Notes under the pieces: generated by a model
What the model saw: only the letters and a program-made list of their open reading frames with translations
The model's database searches: none
Told to the model about the DNA's origin: nothing
Position numbers and translations under genes: made by a program
IMG/VR virus record: IMGVR_UViG_3300022561_000009
DNA length: 64,000 nt
Source: a virus
Direction: 5' to 3' (one strand)
Shown: piece by piece, positions 9,909 through 40,120 of the stretch
How positions within the stretch are numbered: the stretch's first letter is position 1
Layout of the letters: each line of letters opens with the position of its first letter

Positions 9909-11375
9909 CTAATCCTCACAATATGCCCACTCAAGCTTCTCTCCCGTTTCCGGATGAAATCCGCTATGGGATCTTTTACCCTTACAACATTTTGATACAT
10001 CCCATGCGCCATATTTTTTACTAGCATCATACTGAGAGCTGAAAACCTCTCCTGTTGTTAAGCAAATTGCCTTCCTTCTATTGATTGCTGGTGTTGCCCG
10101 CATTAACGTGTATACTTTTTTCATCTGGTCCCCAGGGCTGTAGTCACACCATCCAGACATAGCTCCTTGCTTTAAATATCTAATAACAGTTCCTCGAGAT
10201 ACACCTAGTTTCTCTGCTATCTTAGATGTATTTTCAGTTCCATCATTCCATAAGTCACATGTTTGCTTAACCATGCTTGAGCATGCAGACCCATGACATT
10301 TTAGCCAATTAATATCAGATTCCTTAAATCCTAAAAGTTTCGGTAAAACGCTTTTTAATATGCCATTTTTAATGAAATCGATATTAGAGTATCTGCAATC
10401 TAAGATTATATAATTGTTAATTCCATTCTTCCTAGCAACCTGTTCCTTGTGATTATCGTTATCGTGTATTTCGCTCAATGTCCCCCAGTTGCCCCCCCTG
10501 ACATCCTCGTAGTGCTGTGAACCATGAGTCTCGATGATGCAATTTGTGTTGTCTAAATAAAAGTCATATAAATAATTTTTGCACCAGCTGAACATAGTTT
10601 TTGATAACTGCGGTCTGAAGCTAACCCCAATCTGTTCTAACACGTTAAGAATAAATTTCTCTGGGTATGAGAAACCATCGGAGCATTTAGTACAACCAAA
10701 ACCCGATCTTGCCAATATATGAATATCCATACTCTTTTCATATCCACAATTGGGGCATTTTACAGGAATTTGTTTGTGTGATCCGATGGAACATCTTAAT
10801 GCATCCTCCTTGTTTACTAAGTATTTTATAAAATGAGGATGAGTTACCGATATTGTTTTACACAGATTACACTTAATACTCCCTGTTTGCCCGTTAGAGG
10901 TAAAATCATGAATCCTCTTTTGTTCCGGCATATGGTCTACGTGCTCTAGGCATTTGAACCAATAAGTCTTATATGAACCATGAGAAATGTCCTTAGGAGT
11001 TATCTTGTTTCCAAGGTTATCAACATTCATATCGTTATCCCAACGCAATATTATTTCGTCTGCCTCTTTGTCTGATAAGTTGTCGTGACACCAGTCGTAA
11101 AACGAGACCCATTTTATGAAACCTGCCCTAGAACATTTCTGGCAATAATGGCTCTCATCCTTCTTTGTACATTTTCTGTAATCCCTCCAACCTATTTTCA
11201 TTGTCTCCCTGCACCCGCTACATTCATACTCAACTAATAAACTGGATCCGGAGCTTAAGTCTCCTACTTTAACATCGAACCTATCTCCAAAATTTGTAAA
11301 AATGTATCCCTTTTCTTCATAATGCCTTTTTGTCCTAGCATTCCATTTCATGGTAACCTTTTCTGTAAGTAGCAC
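9909..11375 (-). CDS. free-standing homing-endonuclease-like protein (zinc-ribbon repeats, restriction-endonuclease-like core, C-terminal HTH)
   Basis: Many CxxC pairs. FYLDNTNCIIETHGSQHYE...HKEQVARKNGINNYIILD resembles Vsr/PD-(D/E)xK-type cores. TSKIAEKLGVSRGTVIRYLKQG is an HTH. Sits between two structural paralogues. Confidence 0.6.
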   Translation of the reverse strand: MLLTEKVTMKWNARTKRHYEEKGYIFTNFGDRFDVKVGDLSSGSSLLVEYECSGCRETMKIGWRDYRKCTKKDESHYCQKCSRAGFIKWVSFYDWCHDNLSDKEADEIILRWDNDMNVDNLGNKITPKDISHGSYKTYWFKCLEHVDHMPEQKRIHDFTSNGQTGSIKCNLCKTISVTHPHFIKYLVNKEDALRCSIGSHKQIPVKCPNCGYEKSMDIHILARSGFGCTKCSDGFSYPEKFILNVLEQIGVSFRPQLSKTMFSWCKNYLYDFYLDNTNCIIETHGSQHYEDVRGGNWGTLSEIHDNDNHKEQVARKNGINNYIILDCRYSNIDFIKNGILKSVLPKLLGFKESDINWLKCHGSACSSMVKQTCDLWNDGTENTSKIAEKLGVSRGTVIRYLKQGAMSGWCDYSPGDQMKKVYTLMRATPAINRRKAICLTTGEVFSSQYDASKKYGAWDVSKCCKGKRSHSGFHPETGEKLEWAYCED

Positions 11376-23214: not shown

Positions 23215-24165
23215 TTATTTATTACTTGCTTTGTAATGTTTTTTGAACTGTTCGTCAGTCCCTTTGGGGTTAAATCTACGGTACTGCTCCATTACATCAT
23301 CGGGCACAACAGTCATATCAGAATCCGTTCCCTTACCATTGCCCTTCACGTGAGCCTTACCCTGGATACTGTTCAGCGTGGCTTGCCGAGTGGCATCAGT
23401 TTGTTTAGCCGCAATCTCTTTGCGTTGCGAAGTGTAGTAGGCATCCACTAATGAAATGCCTGATTGACCGCCTTTCCATAACTGCCAAACTGCTTGAGGT
23501 ACATCGTTCGCTTCAGCCATATCAGGAAATTCCTTGGTTAGTTCGCCAAAACTGTCCACAAGGAATCTGTCATGTTGTTCTTTTTCCGCGACTTTTTGAG
23601 TTTCAGCAAATGCTTCGTTGTTCTCTCTCGCCCGTTTAACGTCAGGATGTTCGGCAACAATCTTGTTAATCACTTCGGGGTCAATTCCCTTGTCTTTGTA
23701 CTCTTGAAGTAAGGCTTCTTGTTCCTCACGTTTCAACGCTACATCAAGCTCTGCAAGCGTCTTAACTCCGTGGCTTTCACCATACTTTTCAGCGACATCA
23801 GCATCCGAGTAAACGCCATATTGACCATACTTCTTGGCTATCTCTCTATCTGATGTTCGCTGGGCTTCGATTTCAGTTACTCGTTTTTCCGCCGCTTCTA
23901 GCTTGCGCCTGTTATCAGCGAAGGCACGATCTTGTTCAGGGGTTTGCTTCGTTTGAGTGGCGGGCTCATCCACACTTTTTTCAGTGTCGGTTACGCCTTC
24001 CATTGGCTCTGCTTTTGTTTCCGGATCCGCAGTTTCTTCTACGGGTGATTCTGTTTCTAATGGTTCGGTTGAGACTTCATCTTGGGGTGCAGCGGAATCC
24101 CCTCCTACGCTACTATCCTCAGCAAAAAGCTGTAAGTTCATTGGGATAAATGATGTCTTAAACAT
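23215..24165 (-). CDS. scaffolding protein
   Basis: Acidic, helical/coiled-coil 316 aa. N-terminal NLQLFA motif common in phage head-assembly proteins. Located between portal region and capsid. Confidence 0.7.
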   Translation of the reverse strand: MFKTSFIPMNLQLFAEDSSVGGDSAAPQDEVSTEPLETESPVEETADPETKAEPMEGVTDTEKSVDEPATQTKQTPEQDRAFADNRRKLEAAEKRVTEIEAQRTSDREIAKKYGQYGVYSDADVAEKYGESHGVKTLAELDVALKREEQEALLQEYKDKGIDPEVINKIVAEHPDVKRARENNEAFAETQKVAEKEQHDRFLVDSFGELTKEFPDMAEANDVPQAVWQLWKGGQSGISLVDAYYTSQRKEIAAKQTDATRQATLNSIQGKAHVKGNGKGTDSDMTVVPDDVMEQYRRFNPKGTDEQFKKHYKASNK

Positions 24166-28503: not shown

Positions 28504-30345
28504 TTATCTACCGATTTTTTTTAAAATATAGACTCTTTCTTCCGCCGAAGCGTGGTTTAGGTCCTCAATAATATCGTCTGGAAGCTTAGAGTAATCGTGA
28601 TTCTCTTCTTTATACATGCTCATTTTCTGTTGGCTTCTTGACTCATTAGCTATCATATCGCTGAAAATCAAATCATCATGTTTACCGGGTTGTGCATCGG
28701 GTCGATTATTCTTGTCATAGACAAAGGTAAGGCACTCTCCGAGCATTTGTATATCCGTGAATAGCTCTATATGGTTTTCTAGCAAATCTACTAATTTATC
28801 TATAATGATAGGTCTGCTATTCCCATCAGTTTTAAAACCAAATTTACGTTGTATATCCTTTGCGATTTTATCATAACTTTCACGCATGTACTGCTTAGGG
28901 TATCTTAACCTTTCAAGCTCTTCAATAGGCGAGCTATTAAAGTTAACTTCCACGGAAATCAATGCCGAGTTAAAGTGTAATCCCAAGCAATACATCTGAT
29001 GCGTATATGGCTTACTATTGGTTGATTGCATATGGAGGGTTGCCACTCTTTTACCGGTGATGTTATTCAGCATTGTCCCAGTGAAGGCATCTCTCCCTTC
29101 TCCACTCGTATCACCACCAGCAACATAATGGTAATCCCTCTTAACATCTTCATAAATTGTAATCGTACCACTAGGGTCATCAATCCACTTAATCGAATCC
29201 TGCTTAATCTGATCTTGTGTTTCTCCATCCACCCACTCAAAACTAAAGCGTCCAACTTTCGGAGGATGTTCTTTGTATAACTTTTTAAGTTGGTTGATTC
29301 TTATTTTAATCAGTTCATTGGCGAACACAGGGCGGCCAGTTGCGAGGAAACTTTCCTCTGCGAACGATGGATTTTCTTGTCGCATAAGGTCCCTATCGTT
29401 GTTACAGTCATTCCTTAGCTTCCATCTATACCATGCTATTTGTTCAGCAGTTAAGTTATATAAATCAATGATATTCCGTTCATAACAAAAACTACATTTA
29501 CAATCCTTTTTATGGCCCCTTGATTCCTCTATACTTTCCTCTATGGCCTTTCTTTCCGTATCAGTCACAGGCATTTGATACAACGGGTAATCATGCCAAG
29601 CAAAGAACATAGGAACGAAGTCGTTTTCTCCTGCTACGGCCATATCCCATAGGTCCATAAATGAATTAGTTCCATTCGCGGTAGATTCTATAAGGACTAT
29701 CGTTCCCGGTACGTTAGGGACCGATTGTAGTATCCCTGCTAAACTTCTCAACGGATCACCTGAGTAAAACGCAAACTCTGATAGGTGAACATAATGATAG
29801 GTGTCAGACCGTCCAATACCATCACTACCGGCGGTCTGGACTTTTATCATTGAGTTAAGTCCTTGTTTCTTACCTTTGTGATTAGGAGGTGCATCAAAGA
29901 TTAACTCACGCGCATTAGAAGCCTTCTGCAATGGCTTGATATGTTCCGGTAGCGCATTGTACATATATTTTGCCTTACCAAAGATCGAGGACGTTGAATC
30001 GTCTCTGTGGGCGACTACTAAAGCGTTTCTGTTTTTATTTTTAACGGCTCCGCAAAGTATCTTCGCTTGAGTATACGTTGAACAGCCTTCCTGTCTAGCC
30101 TTCAGCACAATGATTCTAGCAGGGATTCCTTTTGACTCAAGTTCTTTAATCTTATCGTCAATCTGTTTTTGTATTGGGTTATATTCAAAGGGAACTTGTT
30201 GACCTTCTTTGTTGACAATCTTGATATAGTATTTGCAAAAATAAAAGTCGTCACGTTTCGCTTGTTCTTCATGTATCTGTGCCAGTGTTGGCATATCACT
30301 CGCTTTAAGTTTAGGCTTCTTGACAGGTTCCTTTGCGACTACCAT
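28504..30345 (-). CDS. terL: terminase large subunit
   Basis: 613 aa. VLKARQEGCSTY ATPase-type motif, acidic nuclease half. Position upstream of portal. Confidence 0.8.
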   Translation of the reverse strand: MVVAKEPVKKPKLKASDMPTLAQIHEEQAKRDDFYFCKYYIKIVNKEGQQVPFEYNPIQKQIDDKIKELESKGIPARIIVLKARQEGCSTYTQAKILCGAVKNKNRNALVVAHRDDSTSSIFGKAKYMYNALPEHIKPLQKASNARELIFDAPPNHKGKKQGLNSMIKVQTAGSDGIGRSDTYHYVHLSEFAFYSGDPLRSLAGILQSVPNVPGTIVLIESTANGTNSFMDLWDMAVAGENDFVPMFFAWHDYPLYQMPVTDTERKAIEESIEESRGHKKDCKCSFCYERNIIDLYNLTAEQIAWYRWKLRNDCNNDRDLMRQENPSFAEESFLATGRPVFANELIKIRINQLKKLYKEHPPKVGRFSFEWVDGETQDQIKQDSIKWIDDPSGTITIYEDVKRDYHYVAGGDTSGEGRDAFTGTMLNNITGKRVATLHMQSTNSKPYTHQMYCLGLHFNSALISVEVNFNSSPIEELERLRYPKQYMRESYDKIAKDIQRKFGFKTDGNSRPIIIDKLVDLLENHIELFTDIQMLGECLTFVYDKNNRPDAQPGKHDDLIFSDMIANESRSQQKMSMYKEENHDYSKLPDDIIEDLNHASAEERVYILKKIGR

Positions 30346-34445: not shown

Positions 34446-34490
34446 CTATGCCCTAAATTGTGTGTGAAAATAGTACAATGAATTACTATA

Positions 34491-34526
34491 ATATGTCTTG
34501 ACATCAAGACATCATGGTAGTAGTAT
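34491..34526 (+). promoter_or_regulatory. promoter with palindromic operator (ATGTCTTGA-CA-TCAAGACAT)
   Basis: -35 TTGACA 34498-34503, 17-nt spacer, -10 TAGTAT 34521-34526. A perfect 9-bp inverted repeat spans the -35. Confidence 0.6.
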
Positions 34527-34564
34527 AAGTGACAAGAAGTAAAACATTTGAGGGGGAAAACAAA

Positions 34565-34843
34565 ATGACAAAGAGCGAAATGAAGCAAGAATACAACGAG
34601 CTCTGGGCATTATCCAACAACACAATGAACGATATCAGGGACACAGACACCTACACTAAAGACAATAAGTATTACGAATACATTGGGAGAAACGATCACA
34701 GCCTCTATTGTCTCGGAGGATCAGGAAGTTGGAGAATGAATAAACTCACCAAAACAGAACTAGCCAAAAAGATTATCCTGATAACTGAACAGCTCGGAAT
34801 ATTCAACACGATGCTCACTCAGCAATTAGCAAAAATAAACTAA
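34565..34843 (+). CDS. hypothetical protein
   Basis: 92 aa. ATG 34565 follows GAGGGGGA. Confidence 0.6.
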   Translation: MTKSEMKQEYNELWALSNNTMNDIRDTDTYTKDNKYYEYIGRNDHSLYCLGGSGSWRMNKLTKTELAKKIILITEQLGIFNTMLTQQLAKIN

Positions 34844-34887
34844 CTATCACAAGCGAGCTGGCGCATCCAGCGTAAGGAGGAAATAAA

Positions 34888-35052
34888 ATGGGTAAATGGA
34901 TAACAGGTGTTTATAAGAGTGAGCTACATTTTACCAGTGTTTATGTGGAGGATGGCCAAGATGAATTAGACGTATTATTTCCCGAAGGATATGAGGGAGA
35001 AATGTGGATATCTGATTTAAAAATAACCTCAGAACAACTAGACGAAGAATAA
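34888..35052 (+). CDS. hypothetical small protein, 54 aa
   Basis: Manual ORF MGKWITGVYKSELHFTSVYVEDGQDELDVLFPEGYEGEMWISDLKITSEQLDEE. RBS AAGGAGG. Confidence 0.55.
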   Translation: MGKWITGVYKSELHFTSVYVEDGQDELDVLFPEGYEGEMWISDLKITSEQLDEE

Positions 35053-35154
35053 TAGAATCCCGTTATCATTCTGAGAGCTTGTGCTCTCGTCCATACTTCC
35101 TAAAACTAGGGAGCGTGGACGAACGCAGAAACTAAATGAAAGAAGGCAAAACAC

Positions 35155-35322
35155 ATGAAAAACTTAATCTATATTCCTGGTTGGGGCCATTGCCAATTAA
35201 AAGAAACTATCAAGTCAATTCCAGTCAAGGCGCATTATTGCGGGACCGCAGAAGGCGAAGATGAGTCGAGCGAATACAGCATCTACGAAAAAGACAATAC
35301 ATTCTACTGCCTAGCTGAATAA
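35155..35322 (+). CDS. hypothetical small protein, 55 aa
   Basis: Manual ORF MKNLIYIPGWGHCQLKETIKSIPVKAHYCGTAEGEDESSEYSIYEKDNTFYCLAE. RBS GAAAGAAGG. Confidence 0.55.
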   Translation: MKNLIYIPGWGHCQLKETIKSIPVKAHYCGTAEGEDESSEYSIYEKDNTFYCLAE

Positions 35323-35329
35323 CATCCCT

Positions 35330-35382
35330 TCCCACCTGATGAGCTGGAAACAGCGAAACACGGTCAAAGCCGTGTCGTGGGA
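35330..35382 (+). ncRNA. hammerhead self-cleaving ribozyme (stem I open, type I topology)
   Basis: UCCCAC-CUGAUGA-GCUG(GAAA)CAGC-GAAA-CACGG(UCAAAG)CCGUG-UC/GUGGGA. Complete conserved core, G10.1-C11.1, A15.1-U16.1, GUC triplet. Predicted cleavage after C35376. Confidence 0.8.
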
Positions 35383-35410
35383 TAAACCACAAACGAAAGG
35401 AGCCAACACC

Positions 35411-35731
35411 ATGTCAAATGAATTCTACGACTACACCAACCAAGCTTGGGTAGTAAACGGTCACTACATCAAATGCGGTCATCCTGATTCAATGGATTGC
35501 GATTGCTACGGTAAACTACACGCCGGCGAAAAATGCACCGAGGAAACATACTTGGAAACACACCCAATTAAAGAACGCCCAGCAAAGGTATTTGAGATCC
35601 GCGGCGTTAACACTTGTAACTGCTTAGAACTTTCAGTAACAACCACAAGGAGAGAAGCAAACGAGATCGCAGAAGGCCGGCGGTCATGGGGTCATACTTC
35701 AATAACTATTGAGGAAGTCGAAAACGATTAA
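35411..35731 (+). CDS. hypothetical Cys/His-rich protein
   Basis: 106 aa. ATG 35411 follows AAAGGAG. The track ORF's N-terminal extension (from 35339) is the ribozyme, not coding. Confidence 0.6.
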   Translation: MSNEFYDYTNQAWVVNGHYIKCGHPDSMDCDCYGKLHAGEKCTEETYLETHPIKERPAKVFEIRGVNTCNCLELSVTTTRREANEIAEGRRSWGHTSITIEEVEND

Positions 35732-35749
35732 GAAAGGCGGCGCTACATT

Positions 35750-36217
35750 ATGAAATGGTTCAACGGCATTAACACGATTGAGGAATTAAAAAAAGCATTC
35801 CGCGCACTTGTAAAAAAGAATCATCCTGATGTTGGCGGCAATGAACAAGACATGAAGGACATTAACAACGAATACGAGATCATGTTTGCATACATCGAGA
35901 AGCACGGCGGCCAAAGTAAAAATCACAGTGTCAACGATGGATTCCGTGAGGCAATGGAAAAGGTAATAGACTTAGAAGGTTTAAACATTGAAATTTGTGG
36001 TAGTTGGATATGGTTAAGCGGTAACACCTACCCATACAAAGCCGTAATTCGTGAAGCCGGTTTTAGATGGGGAGCAAAGAAGAAAATGTGGTTCTGGCAT
36101 AGCGAAACCGAAACGAGCAACAACCGCAAAACAATGTCAATGGATAACATCCGATCCCTGCACGGGTCCGAAGTTATCAAGGGAACTGTAAGAACCGAAA
36201 AGAAGGCCATAGCATAA
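35750..36217 (+). CDS. J-domain (DnaJ-like) protein with GFRW-type C-terminal domain
   Basis: ELKKAFRALVKKNHPDVGGNEQDMKDINNEYEIMF carries the HPD motif. C-terminus ICGSWIWLSGNTYPYKAVIREAGFRWGAKKKMWFW. Confidence 0.8.
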   Translation: MKWFNGINTIEELKKAFRALVKKNHPDVGGNEQDMKDINNEYEIMFAYIEKHGGQSKNHSVNDGFREAMEKVIDLEGLNIEICGSWIWLSGNTYPYKAVIREAGFRWGAKKKMWFWHSETETSNNRKTMSMDNIRSLHGSEVIKGTVRTEKKAIA

Positions 36218-36218
36218 A

Positions 36219-36269
36219 GGGAGCTTATTCTCCCGTCAATGCACCTAATAAATTTAGATGTATTGACGG
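36219..36269 (+). ncRNA. conserved double stem-loop element, copy 1
   Basis: GGGAG(CUUAUU)CUCCC immediately followed by GUCAAUGCA...UGUAUUGAC long hairpin. Homologous to 36727-36784. Confidence 0.45.
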
Positions 36270-36302
36270 AGGAACAAACCACAAAGAAAGAAGGCACTTG
36301 AA

Positions 36303-36569
36303 ATGAACAAAGACACGAAGAACCTAAAACCTTTATACATCCCGCGCGAAGGTAACTGGAACTATTTCTTGGACCCTACATTTTTTAACACCGTCTTTTG
36401 TATCGCTAAACCTGGTACCGATTGCAAGTCTAGCATGTTCGGAAATGTTCAATACTTTACTAATTGGCTAAGACGCGAACTTGAAAAAGATCCAACCATT
36501 GACGGACGCTTTACCGCTTTATGTTTCGGATTGCTGGACGAAGCACAAGGAAAGGCGGCGAGAGTATGA
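36303..36569 (+). CDS. hypothetical protein
   Basis: 88 aa. RBS GAAAGAAGG. Confidence 0.6.
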   Translation: MNKDTKNLKPLYIPREGNWNYFLDPTFFNTVFCIAKPGTDCKSSMFGNVQYFTNWLRRELEKDPTIDGRFTALCFGLLDEAQGKAARV

Positions 36570-36721
36570 ACGACTACAATTACAAGGAACTAAACGCCCT
36601 CCTAGCTAAGGAGAAGCTAACACCGAAGGAGAACAAGAGAAAGCACTCACTATTAGATCAGTACGAAGAAGAACAAGCGACAAGGGATTACAAGTCATGG
36701 TGCAACAATCAGCCAATTTAA
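36566..36721 (+). CDS. hypothetical small protein, 51 aa
   Basis: ATG 36566 after AAGGAAAGG. Overlaps the upstream stop (ATGA). MNDYNYKELNALLAKEKLTPKENKRKH... Confidence 0.5.
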   Translation: MNDYNYKELNALLAKEKLTPKENKRKHSLLDQYEEEQATRDYKSWCNNQPI

Positions 36722-36726
36722 ACAGT

Positions 36727-36784
36727 GGGGATTTTTCCCCCGTCAATACGCCAACCACACAAACCCAGGCGGGCGCATTGACGG
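36727..36784 (+). ncRNA. conserved double stem-loop element, copy 2
   Basis: GGGGA(UUUU)UCCCC followed by CCGUCAAUACGCC...GGCGCAUUGACGG. Shares CCGUCAAU/AUUGACGGA with copy 1 while the distal stem differs. Confidence 0.45.
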
Positions 36785-36817
36785 AAGAGAAAGCCGAAGG
36801 AAAGAAGGAAAATTATT

Positions 36818-37315
36818 ATGAACAAAGCCGAAAACCTAAACGTACTGAAAACCCTGGAAACATTCCGCGTTAAACTTGCAACCGGAGCAATGTCAGGGGA
36901 TGCAGAATGGGCCGTAAGAATCTGCCAGGCACATATAGCAGCGGAACATTTTAACAGCCGCTCCGATTGGACCGAGCTCCTAAGAGAAGCGGCGGAACCG
37001 GTAAAGGAAATCAAACCCATTAACCCAGCCGTGAAAACCTATGAGCAATGGAGCGAAAGCCGGCAGGACCTTTCAAAGTTTTTACAAATTGGGGACCTAG
37101 TTGACGAAGAAATAGCAGAGTATTTTATAAACGTATTACCGCCCGCGTGTATGTCCGGCGGAATCGTACAAATTGGTGAACCTAGTGACCATGTAGAAGG
37201 CCACGCAACTTATGAAACACTTAAGCGAACGTCTGACGGTTGGCAGTATGCCGGAACTTGTCACAGAGGACAAACGGAACACAAAGCAGGGGAAACAATC
37301 ACCTGGAACAGCTAG
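36818..37315 (+). CDS. hypothetical protein
   Basis: 165 aa. RBS GGAAAGAAGG. Ends in TAG followed by the conserved ACCAAGCAAUGGAAUCA motif. Confidence 0.65.
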   Translation: MNKAENLNVLKTLETFRVKLATGAMSGDAEWAVRICQAHIAAEHFNSRSDWTELLREAAEPVKEIKPINPAVKTYEQWSESRQDLSKFLQIGDLVDEEIAEYFINVLPPACMSGGIVQIGEPSDHVEGHATYETLKRTSDGWQYAGTCHRGQTEHKAGETITWNS

Positions 37316-37377
37316 CACCAAGCAATGGAATCACAAAGCGAGCCGGCGCAATCCGGCGAAGGAAAGAAGGTAACAAC

Positions 37378-37845
37378 ATGACAAGAAAATTTTCACCTGC
37401 TCAAATGAAATACATGAAAGCGAAGGCCATGCACGAAACTATTGTAAACCTCGAAAAGCAATGTAAAGAAAAGGTATTAGAGCAAAACGACTTCTGGAGT
37501 GTACCTGTTGAAGGCATCGACGAGAAAACAGAACGAATTTTAAAACCTGGTTACGACTTCACAATGTCAGACAAAGATTTTATAGAGTATTGCAAACTAG
37601 CCCGCGAACAATACCAAGCCATAGGAATCGAAACGCCAGACTATAATACTAGCCCTACTTATAAATCAAGGCCGGCACTAAAGAAGGCCGAAAGAGAATT
37701 AATCGAATGGGGTTGGTTAATACTTCGATCACATCCTAAGTATTCAGCAGTAGCCGCAGGCATCGAAAACCTGAAAAAAGAAATAACCCATAATACAGAA
37801 ATACGCGAAAAGGTAATTGACTTAACTTTAAGCCTAGTAGCATAG
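37378..37845 (+). CDS. hypothetical protein
   Basis: 155 aa. ATG 37378 after GGAAAGAAGG. Ends in TAG followed by the conserved motif. Confidence 0.65.
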   Translation: MTRKFSPAQMKYMKAKAMHETIVNLEKQCKEKVLEQNDFWSVPVEGIDEKTERILKPGYDFTMSDKDFIEYCKLAREQYQAIGIETPDYNTSPTYKSRPALKKAERELIEWGWLILRSHPKYSAVAAGIENLKKEITHNTEIREKVIDLTLSLVA

Positions 37846-37948
37846 GACCAAGCAAGGGAATGACTAAAAGCAGCTTATTCCCCTGCTTTGGGATCCTGCA
37901 TCATAACAGGGTAACAAAGCGGAAGAATAAACGAAAGAAGGCCAACAC

Positions 37949-38872
37949 ATGAACATTATCAACGAGCAACTAGCCAGACGCAGTAAAGAAAATATGAGCT
38001 TTTCAGACTACACACCAGGCAGTGCAACCGCAGAGTACAATCAACTAATATCTGATGCTACCGAAAAGATTGAGGAGGCGAAGGAAAGAGTATCTGACGA
38101 AGGCAAGCAACGACTAGACACCCTGTTAGCACGTTACTCAGCTAATTATGCTAGCTGGATAAACAGACAGAACAAAAACGGCGCCGGCCATGTCAGCGTA
38201 ATGCTTGCAGGACCTAGTAACTACAACATGAGAGCCCACGAAAAATATATGAGCAGGGAATCTAAACTGTGGGCCGAGTATGACGAATTGAAAAATTATA
38301 TTGAGAATGGAATCTACAGTATAATAAATGGTGACAGAATCATAAAATCAAATGATGTTAACGCCATCGACAAACTGAAGGAGAAACTAGCCAAGCTGGA
38401 AGAAATGCAGAACCTAATGAAATCAGCTAACAAAATAGTGAAGAACAAAAAGTTTACGGATGATGTAAAAATTGAGCTACTTGTAGAAATGGGAATAAGC
38501 GAAGCGAAAGCAGCCAGCCTATTACTTCCCAGTCATTGTTGCGCATGTGGTTTCGCGTCCTACGAGCTAACAAACAACAACGCCACAATCCGAAACACCA
38601 AGCAACGTATTGCGCACCTTGAACGGCTTGCAGCGCAGGAAACGAAAGAAATCATCATTGAAACGGAATCAGATGAAAGCAACGGAATCAGGATCGTTGA
38701 CAATGTAGCGGCGTGTCGCTTACAAATATTCTTCAACGGCAAACCTTCCGCAGAAACCAGGACCGCATTAAAGAAAAATGGATTCAGATGGACACCATCA
38801 ATAAGCGCATGGCAATCATACCGGAGCGATCACGCAAACACCGCAGCGCAGGAAATAGTTAACGCCATGTAG
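37949..38872 (+). CDS. DUF3560-like protein with GFRW-type C-terminal domain
   Basis: HVSVMLAGPSNYNMRAHEKYMSRE and C-terminal RLQIFFNGKPSAETRTALKKNGFRWTPSISAWQ match my recollection of DUF3560 proteins of plasmids, ICEs and phages. Confidence 0.6.
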   Translation: MNIINEQLARRSKENMSFSDYTPGSATAEYNQLISDATEKIEEAKERVSDEGKQRLDTLLARYSANYASWINRQNKNGAGHVSVMLAGPSNYNMRAHEKYMSRESKLWAEYDELKNYIENGIYSIINGDRIIKSNDVNAIDKLKEKLAKLEEMQNLMKSANKIVKNKKFTDDVKIELLVEMGISEAKAASLLLPSHCCACGFASYELTNNNATIRNTKQRIAHLERLAAQETKEIIIETESDESNGIRIVDNVAACRLQIFFNGKPSAETRTALKKNGFRWTPSISAWQSYRSDHANTAAQEIVNAM

Positions 38873-39008
38873 AACCGAGCGGTGGAATCAGACCGACGCG
38901 CAAAAATATTAGCGGGGGAATCAATAAAGTATTTCCCCACTTCTGCGCCTAAACAAAAAAAGATTAGACGTACAAGTGAGGGAATATCATTAAGGAGGAA
39001 TCAGTGGA

Positions 39009-39899
39009 ATGACAGAAAATGAATTAATGCCTATTGAACTTTCGATCATGCCAACGAGTAAAGTCGTTGAATACTTCTTAGGCCAACAATCAGAAGGAAC
39101 CGCCAGGACATATGGCAGTGCAATTCGTGGGTTTGTCGCTTGGTCATGTAATCAGGACTACAGAACAATTACACCGTTTCAAGCAATGGATTTCAACGAG
39201 CATCTAAAAGCTACCTGTTCGCCAGCCACGGTTCAGCGTCAAATTGCAACACTCAAGATGTTTTTCAAGTTTGCACTCGAATGTGGACTGATTACAAAAA
39301 ACCCATTCGCATTAATTAAGCAACACGGAGCAGTTAGCACAGCAGGTCAAAAGTTTCTAACAGTCAAAGAAATTGACTTCTTGCTTGCAGAACTTGAGAA
39401 AGCTGGACCACGCCAGCACATTCTAGGTCTTATACTCGTTTATACAGGCATGAGAATCAGTGAAGTGGCTGGACTCTCATGGTGTGACGTAACCGAGATG
39501 CCAGGAGGCGAAATATATCTAAATATTTTACGCAAAGGTGATAAACGCCAAATGCTCTATCTTCGACCTGATGTAACAAAGGTCCTTATGGAGTACATGG
39601 ACCGGCCATTAAACCAATTAGACCACAGTCCGTTGTTCCTGAACCCGCAGGGGAATCGCGTGAGTGACGTGAGCTTGCGTACCTGGATTATAAAGGCCGG
39701 AAAAAAGGCAGGAATAAAAAAGCATTGCAACCCCCATATTTTACGGCATACGTTTGTTTCTCACTGTATTGCCAATAATGCTGATATGAGAGCAGTACAA
39801 CAGTATGTCGGACACGCGCAAATCACAACCACACAAATCTATTGGCACAGTGATAATGACAAGGTTTCCGACTTCATGCCGAATAAGATAAGTGAGTAG
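39009..39899 (+). CDS. tyrosine recombinase, XerC/D-like (second recombinase of the element)
   Basis: N-terminal SAM-like core-binding domain. Catalytic pattern GMRISE ... HILRHTF ... GHAQITTTQIYWH (R, H-x-x-R, H, Y). Confidence 0.85.
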   Translation: MTENELMPIELSIMPTSKVVEYFLGQQSEGTARTYGSAIRGFVAWSCNQDYRTITPFQAMDFNEHLKATCSPATVQRQIATLKMFFKFALECGLITKNPFALIKQHGAVSTAGQKFLTVKEIDFLLAELEKAGPRQHILGLILVYTGMRISEVAGLSWCDVTEMPGGEIYLNILRKGDKRQMLYLRPDVTKVLMEYMDRPLNQLDHSPLFLNPQGNRVSDVSLRTWIIKAGKKAGIKKHCNPHILRHTFVSHCIANNADMRAVQQYVGHAQITTTQIYWHSDNDKVSDFMPNKISE

Positions 39900-39904
39900 A
39901 TATT

Positions 39905-39934
39905 AAAAAGGCTTCCCATTTCGGAAGCCTTTTT
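39905..39934 (+). terminator. bidirectional rho-independent terminator ending the plus-strand operon
   Basis: AAAAA-GGCTTCC(catttc)GGAAGCC-TTTTT. Confidence 0.8.
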
Positions 39935-39961
39935 GTTTATCTTACCCCCAGGAAAAATAGC

Positions 39962-40120
39962 TTATTGTGGAATATAAACGCTAGCGTTTTCCTGCATCAT
40001 TCTTTCAAATATCTTAAAGCTAGAATCTTCATCGTACACATCAAATTCACTGCATAACTCTTTTTGTGGCTTATCTTTTTTAGGACAAGTCTTTACATGA
40101 ACACAGTTTTTACACAACAC
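39962..40120 (-). CDS. Cys-rich small protein, 52 aa
   Basis: Manual GTG-start ORF (M)LCKNCVHVKTCPKKDKPQKELCSEFDVYDEDSSFKIFERMMQENASVYIPQ. RBS AGGGGGA. Confidence 0.4.
   Translation of the reverse strand: MLCKNCVHVKTCPKKDKPQKELCSEFDVYDEDSSFKIFERMMQENASVYIPQ

Follow-up and report, generated by a model that had tools for sequence, protein, structure and literature searches.

We examined a 64,000-nucleotide (nt) stretch of viral DNA (IMG/VR virus record IMGVR_UViG_3300022561_000009), the whole of which is called the window here. Between two small plus-strand genes, at 35330-35382, it carries an element with the sequence and predicted fold of a type I hammerhead ribozyme. That this is a true hammerhead by descent is almost beyond doubt; that it is also a functional ribozyme, for which self-cleavage is predicted from the sequence, we consider highly probable. 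The element, its parts and the features on either side of it are as follows.

35155..35322, plus strand: upstream gene of 55 amino acids (aa), from the open reading frame (ORF) list and gene calls; its stop lies 8 nt before CCCAC at 35331 and 7 nt before 35330
35330..35382, plus strand: type I hammerhead ribozyme, 53 nt (sequence, fold, descriptor and covariance model R1)
35330-35335 and 35377-35382, plus strand: stem I, 6 base pairs (bp), UCCCAC with GUGGGA (sequence)
35336-35342, plus strand: core CUGAUGA, C3 to A9 (sequence)
35343-35354, plus strand: stem-loop II, GCUG-GAAA-CAGC, 4 bp, with G10.1-C11.1 (35343/35354) as the closing pair
35347..35350, plus strand: GAAA tetraloop of stem-loop II; A35350, the base that ends it, is predicted to make a tertiary pair with U35383
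35355-35357, plus strand: G12, A13 and A14 (sequence)
35358-35375, plus strand: stem-loop III, A15.1 (35358)-U16.1 (35375), then CACGG/CCGUG, with the loop UCAAAG
35376..35377, plus strand: predicted scissile bond between C17 (35376) and G1.1 (35377), from the core alignment and hammerhead chemistry
35383..35388, plus strand: conserved 3′ tail UAAACC, starting at U1.7; identical in the metagenome contigs L060 and L071 and part of a module at 35331-35388
35395..35413, plus strand: Shine-Dalgarno sequence GAAAGGAG at 35395-35402 and ATG at 35411-35413 (sequence; metagenome gene call)
35411-35731, plus strand: downstream gene of 106 aa (metagenome gene call)

Sequence and fold of the element

Membership of the hammerhead class has been defined by the core, the A15.1-U16.1 pair and a residue 17 that is not G (H17), as listed in the Methods of Perreault et al. 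(2011, PLoS Comput Biol, PMC3088659), and all invariant core positions, A15.1-U16.1 and H17 (here C) are present at 35330-35382. The pairs adjoining the core (1.1-2.1, 10.1-11.1 and 15.1-16.1) are all Watson–Crick, with no mispair beside it. The topology is type I, in which stem I is open and stems II and III are closed by loops, in the order 5′-I-core-II-GAAA-III-H17-I-3′. Folded alone, the 53-mer has the exact hammerhead as its minimum-energy structure (−22.7 kcal/mol, z = −3.8), and none of 200 shuffled sequences was as stable.

A first-pass annotation, made from the sequence, had already parsed the element in this way. Every base of that parse at 35330-35382 held, including the core, G10.1-C11.1, A15.1-U16.1 and the GUC triplet, as did the 88-nt spacer (35323-35410) between 35155..35322 and 35411..35731. 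Its helices of 6, 4 and 6 bp with stem I open were also recovered, and stem III may reach 7 bp through a terminal U-G pair. Its predicted cleavage position, C35376, follows from the core alignment and lies 34 nt ahead of the ATG at 35411. Hammerhead cleavage leaves a 5′ product with a 2′,3′-cyclic phosphate and a 3′ product with a 5′-OH.

Significance against chance and evidence of descent

We searched both strands of the 64-kb window with our own type I descriptor (CUGANGA, GAAA and UH, with three helices of at least 4, 3 and 4 bp), and 35330-35382 was the sole match on either strand. In 400 dinucleotide-preserving shuffles of the window the descriptor matched loosely once, or about 0.0025 times per window, and never with helices of at least 6, 4 and 6 bp.

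A covariance model, R1, was built from 8 viral type I hammerheads of 5 contigs (15 base pairs) that had been matched in viral contigs by the pattern CCACCTGATGAG-N6-24-CGAAAC, with the window and its close relatives excluded. R1 aligned end-to-end with 35331-35381 at 43.4 bits (E ~2e-10, with filters off and a rough calibration), part of the score being stem I sequence similarity because the training pattern shares CCAC and the core with the window. The next-best match in the 64 kb scored 11 bits (E ~1). Across 98 sources R1 gave 103 matches, 78 of them distinct. Standard pairs fill 98.3% of the cells of the resulting family alignment and two-sided changes occur in 13 of its 15 pairs, values that were reached in none of 500 shuffles, although the pairing is somewhat inflated because the alignment was fitted to the R1 structure; with the 3′ partners slid, pairing was only 33–53%. 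That fitting does not account for how many pair types occur at each position: one stem III pair, for instance, is AU in 22 members, CG in 22, GC in 20 and UA in 12.

Closer relatives were sought with an exact 24-nt query spanning the core and stem II, CTGATGAGCTGGAAACAGCGAAAC, which gave 2 matches in IMG/VR, 7 in genome contigs and 20 in metagenome contigs. Two metagenome contigs hold near-twins of the element, at 1642-1692 in L060 and 675-725 in L071. When the three copies were aligned together with 50 nt of flank, homology ran abruptly from CCCAC (35331) to ACC (35388), a block of 58 nt, within flanks that are unrelated. The window differs from L060 and L071 at 4 positions of this block. Two lie in loop III and two form a compensatory change in stem III, at 15.3/16.3, where A35360-U35373 is replaced by C-G.

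These results bear on the most basic alternative, that the element matches the consensus by chance, has no catalysis and is mere spacer or codes for extra N-terminal residues of a 130-aa protein. The motif is short, consensus matches do arise by chance in large databases (Perreault et al., PMC3088659), Rfam gathering scores are not reached and an ORF reads across the ribozyme. The last point had been made by the first-pass annotation and is correct: the mechanical ORF list gives 130 aa at 35339-35731, starting at the AUG inside CUGAUGA. Against this explanation stand the single loose and absent strict matches in 400 shuffles, the distance between 43.4 and 11 bits in the R1 search, and the recurrence of the 58-nt block in two other contigs, in unrelated contexts, where the RNA change is compensatory but the peptide change (T/V/V to P/D/G) is non-conservative. 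The ATG at 35339 lacks a Shine-Dalgarno sequence, whereas the ATG at 35411 has GAAAGGAG 8 nt upstream, and the gene caller of the source metagenome contig (3300010331, Ga0123336_10000178) picked the 106-aa version from 35411. We therefore regard a chance match as very unlikely, take the 24-residue N-terminal extension of the 130-aa ORF to be spurious and call the gene from 35411.

The spurious peptide recurs in the near-twins. Reading from the AUG inside CUGAUGA yields MSWKQRN(T/P)(V/D)KA(V/G)SWDKP at 35339-35410 of the window, 1650-1727 of L060 and 683-829 of L071. As its frame is that of the real downstream gene in both the window and L060, naive ORF callers would add it there as a false N terminus. 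A protein database search with a longer version of the peptide (MSWKQRN...SWDKP) found no mis-annotated copies. The tail GTCGTGGGATAAACC was also searched for in IMG/VR, and all 33 matches were coding or chance, many of them encoding SWDKP.

All seven species-representative genome contigs with CTGATGAGCTGGAAACAGCGAAAC (L045-L051) carry type III hammerheads. By their titles, six are metagenome-assembled genomes of Patescibacteria, also known as the candidate phyla radiation (Saccharibacteria/Saccharimonadales and Paceibacterota), and the seventh is an ‘uncultured bacterium’.

A predicted tertiary contact

At cellular concentrations of Mg2+, natural hammerheads are active only if stem I is in contact with loop II. 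A conserved part of this contact pairs the last A of loop II with a U beside residue 1.6 (Chi et al. 2008, PMC2553840; Dufour et al. 2009, PMC2632901), within the motifs RNnA in loop 2 and UNmYN in loop 1 (PMC2553840, PMC2632901). The window fits these motifs: loop II, GAAA, ends in A35350, and the tail after the 6-bp stem I, U35383-AAA-C-C, reads U-N3-Y-N.

An unbiased IMG/VR sample was drawn with the pattern CTGATGAG-N10-CGAAAC, which returned at least 120 loci (among them L216-L330); the counts that follow hold among the matches listed. Stem II was paired in 97, of which 53 were type III, 42 type I and 2 of neither topology. The 42 type I examples have, like the window, a 4-bp stem II with a tetraloop. 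Stem I was exactly 6 bp in 33 of them, and 28 had U at position 1.7. The combination of final loop II base and nucleotide 1.7 was A-U in 28, G-C in 7, U-A in 6 and G-G in 1 (A/U against the rest, Fisher's exact p = 2e-11, a value that overstates independence because some of the 42 are related to each other). The window belongs to the A-U class, and a tertiary contact between A35350 and U35383 is predicted on this basis. Crystal structures show a Hoogsteen A-U pair at this position, where the covariation that we observe is Watson–Crick-like.

The loop II–tail pseudoknot of the type described by Perreault et al. (at least 3-4 Watson–Crick pairs; PMC3088659) was considered and rejected for the window, as UUUC, the complement of GAAA, is absent from the tail AUAAACCACAAAC. 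Many members of the clade with CCCAC/GUGGG in stem I do pair loop II with the tail, through GGU/ACC, GGC/GCC, CAGC/GCUG or UGAC/GUCA (read by eye).

The hammerhead interpretation of the first-pass annotation is thus supported by the core, the helices, the R1 score, the twins with their compensatory change and the loop II/1.7 pair.

Evidence weighed against a functional ribozyme

Besides the share of stem I in the R1 score, several results weigh against a functional element or against its proposed role; they concern Rfam, the distribution of the element and its folding in longer transcripts. We compared the window with the hammerhead families of Rfam 15 (RF00163, RF00008, RF02275 HH9, RF02276 type II, RF02277 HH10 and RF03152; clan CL00010), and at gathering thresholds Rfam returned no match in the whole window. 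The element shares its core with these families, and the best local alignment, to Hammerhead_HH9, runs across stems I–III; its 23.3 bits are far under the gathering score of 52, with E = 0.26 on the whole window. The outcome of this search, which the first-pass annotation had proposed as a check, is therefore mixed: nothing reached the gathering score, whereas on 201 nt the sub-threshold HH9 match had E = 8e-4 with all three stems correctly placed.

The fitness of the models was measured at gathering thresholds on ten loci: eight with viral type I hammerheads (L060, L071, L002, L150, L107, L110, L078 and L109), L001 with three type III copies and L031 with a type II copy. Rfam missed all eight of the type I hammerheads, the twins in L060 and L071 included, as well as the three type III copies of L001, and reported only two type II matches and a tRNA. 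As every other viral type I hammerhead in this set was missed too, the failure to detect the element in the window reflects the models more than the sequence. Eukaryotic, viroid and type II sequences make up most of the training data of the Rfam hammerhead models. Among the matches listed for CTGATGAG-N10-CGAAAC in IMG/VR, 95 of the 97 well-paired sites are complete hammerheads, and from this together with the Rfam misses we conclude that phage hammerheads are probably heavily under-annotated. The element in the window exposes this gap in Rfam coverage.

With regard to distribution, none of 39 fetched viral loci with homologues of the DnaJ-like gene that lies downstream in the window has a type I hammerhead, and the two remote relatives of the 106-aa gene have no hammerhead in front of them. 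Because there is no syntenic conservation, orthologues give no argument that the operon needs the ribozyme. Such a sporadic distribution (two of the 39 loci carry a type II hammerhead) and the sharp boundaries of the module within unrelated flanks would suit an element that is real by descent but now useless, a module, selfish or hitch-hiking, that spreads among phage genomes while being neutral or decaying; hammerheads have often been linked to selfish elements (PMC3088659). We consider this unlikely for the copy in the window. Its core positions, helices and tertiary pair are all intact, and the only differences among the three copies are a compensatory pair and bases of a loop, which argues for purifying selection on the structure. 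Placement relative to stop and start codons is also non-random across the R1 family, in which the median gap between the upstream stop and the ribozyme is 15 nt (8 in the window) and the distance from the cleavage site to the next start preceded by a Shine-Dalgarno sequence clusters at 31-47 nt (34 in the window).

The type II hammerheads at the DnaJ-like loci lie ~250 nt downstream of the homologue, in L031 (3622-3687) and L032 (2298-2354), and are absent from the other 37. The L031 copy matches Rfam RF02276 at 51.9 bits.

The last of these results comes from secondary-structure prediction. In transcripts that end at 35382-35392 the hammerhead is the minimum-energy fold and the probability of stem I is 0.84-0.99. 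Once the Shine-Dalgarno region has been transcribed, an alternative fold is better by 1.2-1.7 kcal/mol, a difference that lies within model error and ignores tertiary stabilisation, and the probability of stem I is ~0.1-0.15. This fold pairs 35325-35331 with 35395-35401 and forms a GUGG/CCAC hairpin at 35377-35390; as it is favoured on the longer transcript, some molecules might escape cleavage. The predictions suggest a kinetic window in which co-transcriptional folding would favour the active fold.

The same structures could be read as a conformational switch, in which the uncleaved RNA would hide the ribosome-binding site and cleavage, or its failure, would set translation of the 106-aa gene. 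The minimum-energy fold of the full spacer does pair the 5′ flank CCCUUCC with the Shine-Dalgarno region, and GUGG with CCAC, at the energy advantage given above, and the Shine-Dalgarno sequence is predicted to be unpaired in the 3′ product, that is, free after cleavage. The pairing between flank and Shine-Dalgarno region amounts to only 6 bp with an internal mismatch, though, and is not shared by L060 or L071, in which the 5′ flank is unrelated; the energy gap is open to the reservations already stated. We hold a switch to be improbable, and prefer plain self-cleavage of the transcript.

Genomic setting and proposed role

Judged from its sequence, the source is a novel metagenomic tailed phage. 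The window covers nearly the whole of its source contig from JGI, which has 65,272 bp. No DNA match to the window was found in 50,697 phage records; its large terminase has <30% identity to any known, and it also encodes a gp3-like packaging protein. The features that bear on the transcript are listed here.

28504-30345: large terminase
34464..39935, plus strand: putative early transcription unit (consensus scans and PHROG/Pfam; boundaries inferred)
34464-34526, plus strand: promoter-like sites (consensus matches only)
35750-36217, plus strand: DnaJ-like gene (PHROG/Pfam)
37949-38872, plus strand: primase (PHROG/Pfam)
39009-39899, plus strand: tyrosine integrase, 3.6 kb downstream of the ribozyme (PHROG/Pfam)
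39904-39935, plus strand: terminator hairpin directly after the integrase; no other strong terminator is predicted on the plus strand past the ribozyme

The ribozyme has the sense orientation in this operon and falls between a stop codon and the ribosome-binding site that follows, a placement typical of its family, with phage genes on both sides. The consensus scan predicted no plus-strand terminator between the promoter-like sites and 39904, and from the positions of these consensus sites the ribozyme would sit ~0.85 kb into a ~5.4-kb transcript. An intrinsic terminator at stem III was considered as another reading of the hairpin and rejected, as no U-run follows stem III and the scan gave no plus-strand terminator there. 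The 106-aa protein is rich in Cys and His (…CGHPDSMDCDCYGKLHAGEKC…) and has no Pfam or PHROG match; among 5.8 billion proteins only two remote relatives were found, and of its three database relatives one comes from its own contig.

The contig L060 is phage-like. Beyond a small-terminase gene on its minus strand, the plus strand carries in turn a small ORF, the ribozyme and a gene for an ArdC-like anti-restriction protein, an arrangement that mirrors that of the window, in which a plus-strand operon diverges from packaging genes.

Self-cleavage of a polycistronic early transcript is the most likely role of the element, in line with the proposal of Perreault et al. for prophage hammerheads (PMC3088659). 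On this model the 53-nt core would fold as RNA polymerase passes ~35382, the GAAA loop of stem II would dock on the unpaired U35383 just past the 6-bp stem I, and the RNA would cut itself after C35376. The 5′ part would then hold the three small genes and end in the compact structure of stems II and III with a 2′,3′-cyclic phosphate. The 3′ part would begin with a 5′-OH at G35377, 34 nt before the start codon, and carry the 106-aa, DnaJ-like, primase and integrase genes. The two halves could thereafter differ in stability or in translation rate, and cleavage would uncouple the three small upstream genes from the genes for replication and integration. Transcription as a single unit, cleavage in vivo and an effect on expression are all inferred here. 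For annotation, the site is a probable position of RNA processing, which divides the early operon of this phage into two parts.

A hairpin downstream of the cleavage site

One further feature lies at the 5′ terminus of the predicted downstream product.

35377..35390, plus strand: alternative hairpin GUGG-GAUAAA-CCAC, predicted at −4.7 kcal/mol

Because one side of the hairpin is the 3′ strand of stem I, hairpin and active fold are mutually exclusive. A copy of the 5′ strand of stem I downstream of the cleavage site is a recurrent feature of the clade with CCCAC/GUGGG in stem I (alignment A5, L072-L165). The product's initial 4 nt have their reverse complement again within the next 26 nt, with the copy lying 3-18 nt past stem I, in 54 of 82 distinct members, compared with 4 of 81 and 5 of 79 control windows. 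Some 26 of the 54 copies are distal with variable loops (4-18 nt), many of them with 5 bp, and the copy tracks variants of stem I (ACGG with CCGU, GCCGG with CCGGC). As a general property of type I hammerheads the hairpin was rejected: it occurs in 8 of 41 examples among the matches listed, against a permuted mean of 3.3 and maximum of 10, which is not a significant enrichment. With no enrichment outside the clade, the hairpin is specific to it and may be a relic, left for instance by a permutation from type III to type I.

We suggest tentatively, and with more doubt than assurance, that the conserved unit is a cassette of 58-61 nt made up of ribozyme and tail (35331-35390) and working as a cut-and-cap device. 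If so, the released GUGG would refold with the downstream CCAC and place a hairpin at the first nucleotide of the new mRNA. Cleavage would become irreversible, the 5′-OH would be shielded from RNases that depend on the 5′ end, and the Shine-Dalgarno sequence would be left exposed; irreversibility and protection are plausible consequences, given what is known of stem-loops at 5′ ends in general. Synthetic insulators of the RiboJ type consist of the sTRSV hammerhead with an added downstream hairpin. The window has the same order of ribozyme, hairpin and ribosome-binding site, which would likewise provide the mRNA of the downstream gene with a 5′ end that is both defined and structured. Unlike that of RiboJ, its putative hairpin is natural and would take one of its sides, the 3′ strand of stem I, from the ribozyme itself, so that it could form only after cleavage or in place of it. 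A cut-and-cap cassette would then be a natural counterpart of the RiboJ insulator.

Relation to known hammerheads

Phage hammerheads have been known in their thousands since 2011. Intercistronic prophage examples were described in that year by Perreault et al., who proposed that they cut long phage transcripts into shorter mRNAs and noted the proximity of bacterial hammerheads to integrases (PMC3088659); a 2019 review still calls their role hypothetical (PMC6765202). The element in the window shares with the 2011 set the consensus core and an intercistronic site in a phage operon near an integrase, and the position of its twin in L060 before an ArdC-like gene echoes the ardA context of an Agrobacterium prophage example (PMC3088659). 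It differs in being a single copy and not part of a gene-flanking cluster, and in having a predicted contact between loop II and U1.7 in place of the pseudoknot of ~40% of that set (PMC3088659).

With the viral type I clade of alignment A5 the window has in common stem I, topology, placement before a Shine-Dalgarno sequence and the downstream CCAC copy. Most A5 members have a stem II of 5-7 bp and a 7-nt loop that pairs with the 3′ tail, whereas in the window stem II is 4 bp and its GAAA loop lacks complementarity to the tail. Like the Sm-alpha Schistosoma, sTRSV and CChMVd ribozymes (PMC2553840, PMC2632901), it combines a GNRA-type loop II ending in A with a U beside 1.6, and its tail UAAACC fits the U-N(m)-Y-N of loop 1 in full-length natural hammerheads; in contrast to these, its stem I is open after 6 bp, without a closed loop or a clear continuing helix.

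The element is thus a good annotation of a known class, not a discovery, and would not surprise a specialist. As a small, clean, single-copy example with defined upstream and downstream cistrons, it is a convenient test case for the role of phage hammerheads.

Hammerhead clusters and minor observations

In other viral contigs 3-5 hammerheads lie a few hundred nt to ~1 kb apart, often each before a small gene. Clusters were recorded at the following positions.

L001, 10415-11252: hammerhead cluster, 3 copies
L179, 528-2592: hammerhead cluster, 5 copies
L120, 2067-3364: hammerhead cluster, 4 copies
L109, 6686-9831: hammerhead cluster
L153, 1415-3965: hammerhead cluster

The contigs L080, L094, L115, L120 and L144 resemble tandem units of a hammerhead and a ~99-aa ORF.

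The clusters flanking single genes in L001, L179 and L120 raise the question of whether the element in the window forms an end of an RNA that is excised, spliced or circularised by paired ribozymes, a possibility put forward by Perreault et al., who detected no spliced or circular products (PMC3088659). Against it, the whole window holds no second ribozyme of any Rfam class at E < 1, and descriptors for types I, II and III gave no other credible hammerhead in it. We judge this explanation extremely unlikely, the least probable of those considered, and retain cleavage by a single ribozyme. One loose match, at 24052-24164 on the minus strand, has type III helices of 5, 4 and 3 bp with very long loops, lies in a coding region and receives no support from Rfam or R1; it was set aside as chance.

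In L001, the copy at 10816-10877 has the same stems I and II as the window, in type III order (GUC-GUGGGC-UGUAA-GCCCAC-CUGAUGAG...). Its stem I is GUGGGC/GCCCAC where that of the window is GUGGGA/UCCCAC, and stem-loop II is identical. The comparison suggests a recent permutation between the type III and type I topologies. The other two hammerheads of this contig, 360-400 nt apart, are also type III.

At the far end of the operon, 39902-39994 on the minus strand gives a sub-threshold match to the Rfam family Phe_leader (37.4 bits against 55, E = 0.014). The match coincides with the 13-bp terminator hairpin at 39904-39935, which is flanked by runs of A and T, and this site is probably a bidirectional terminator and not a leader.

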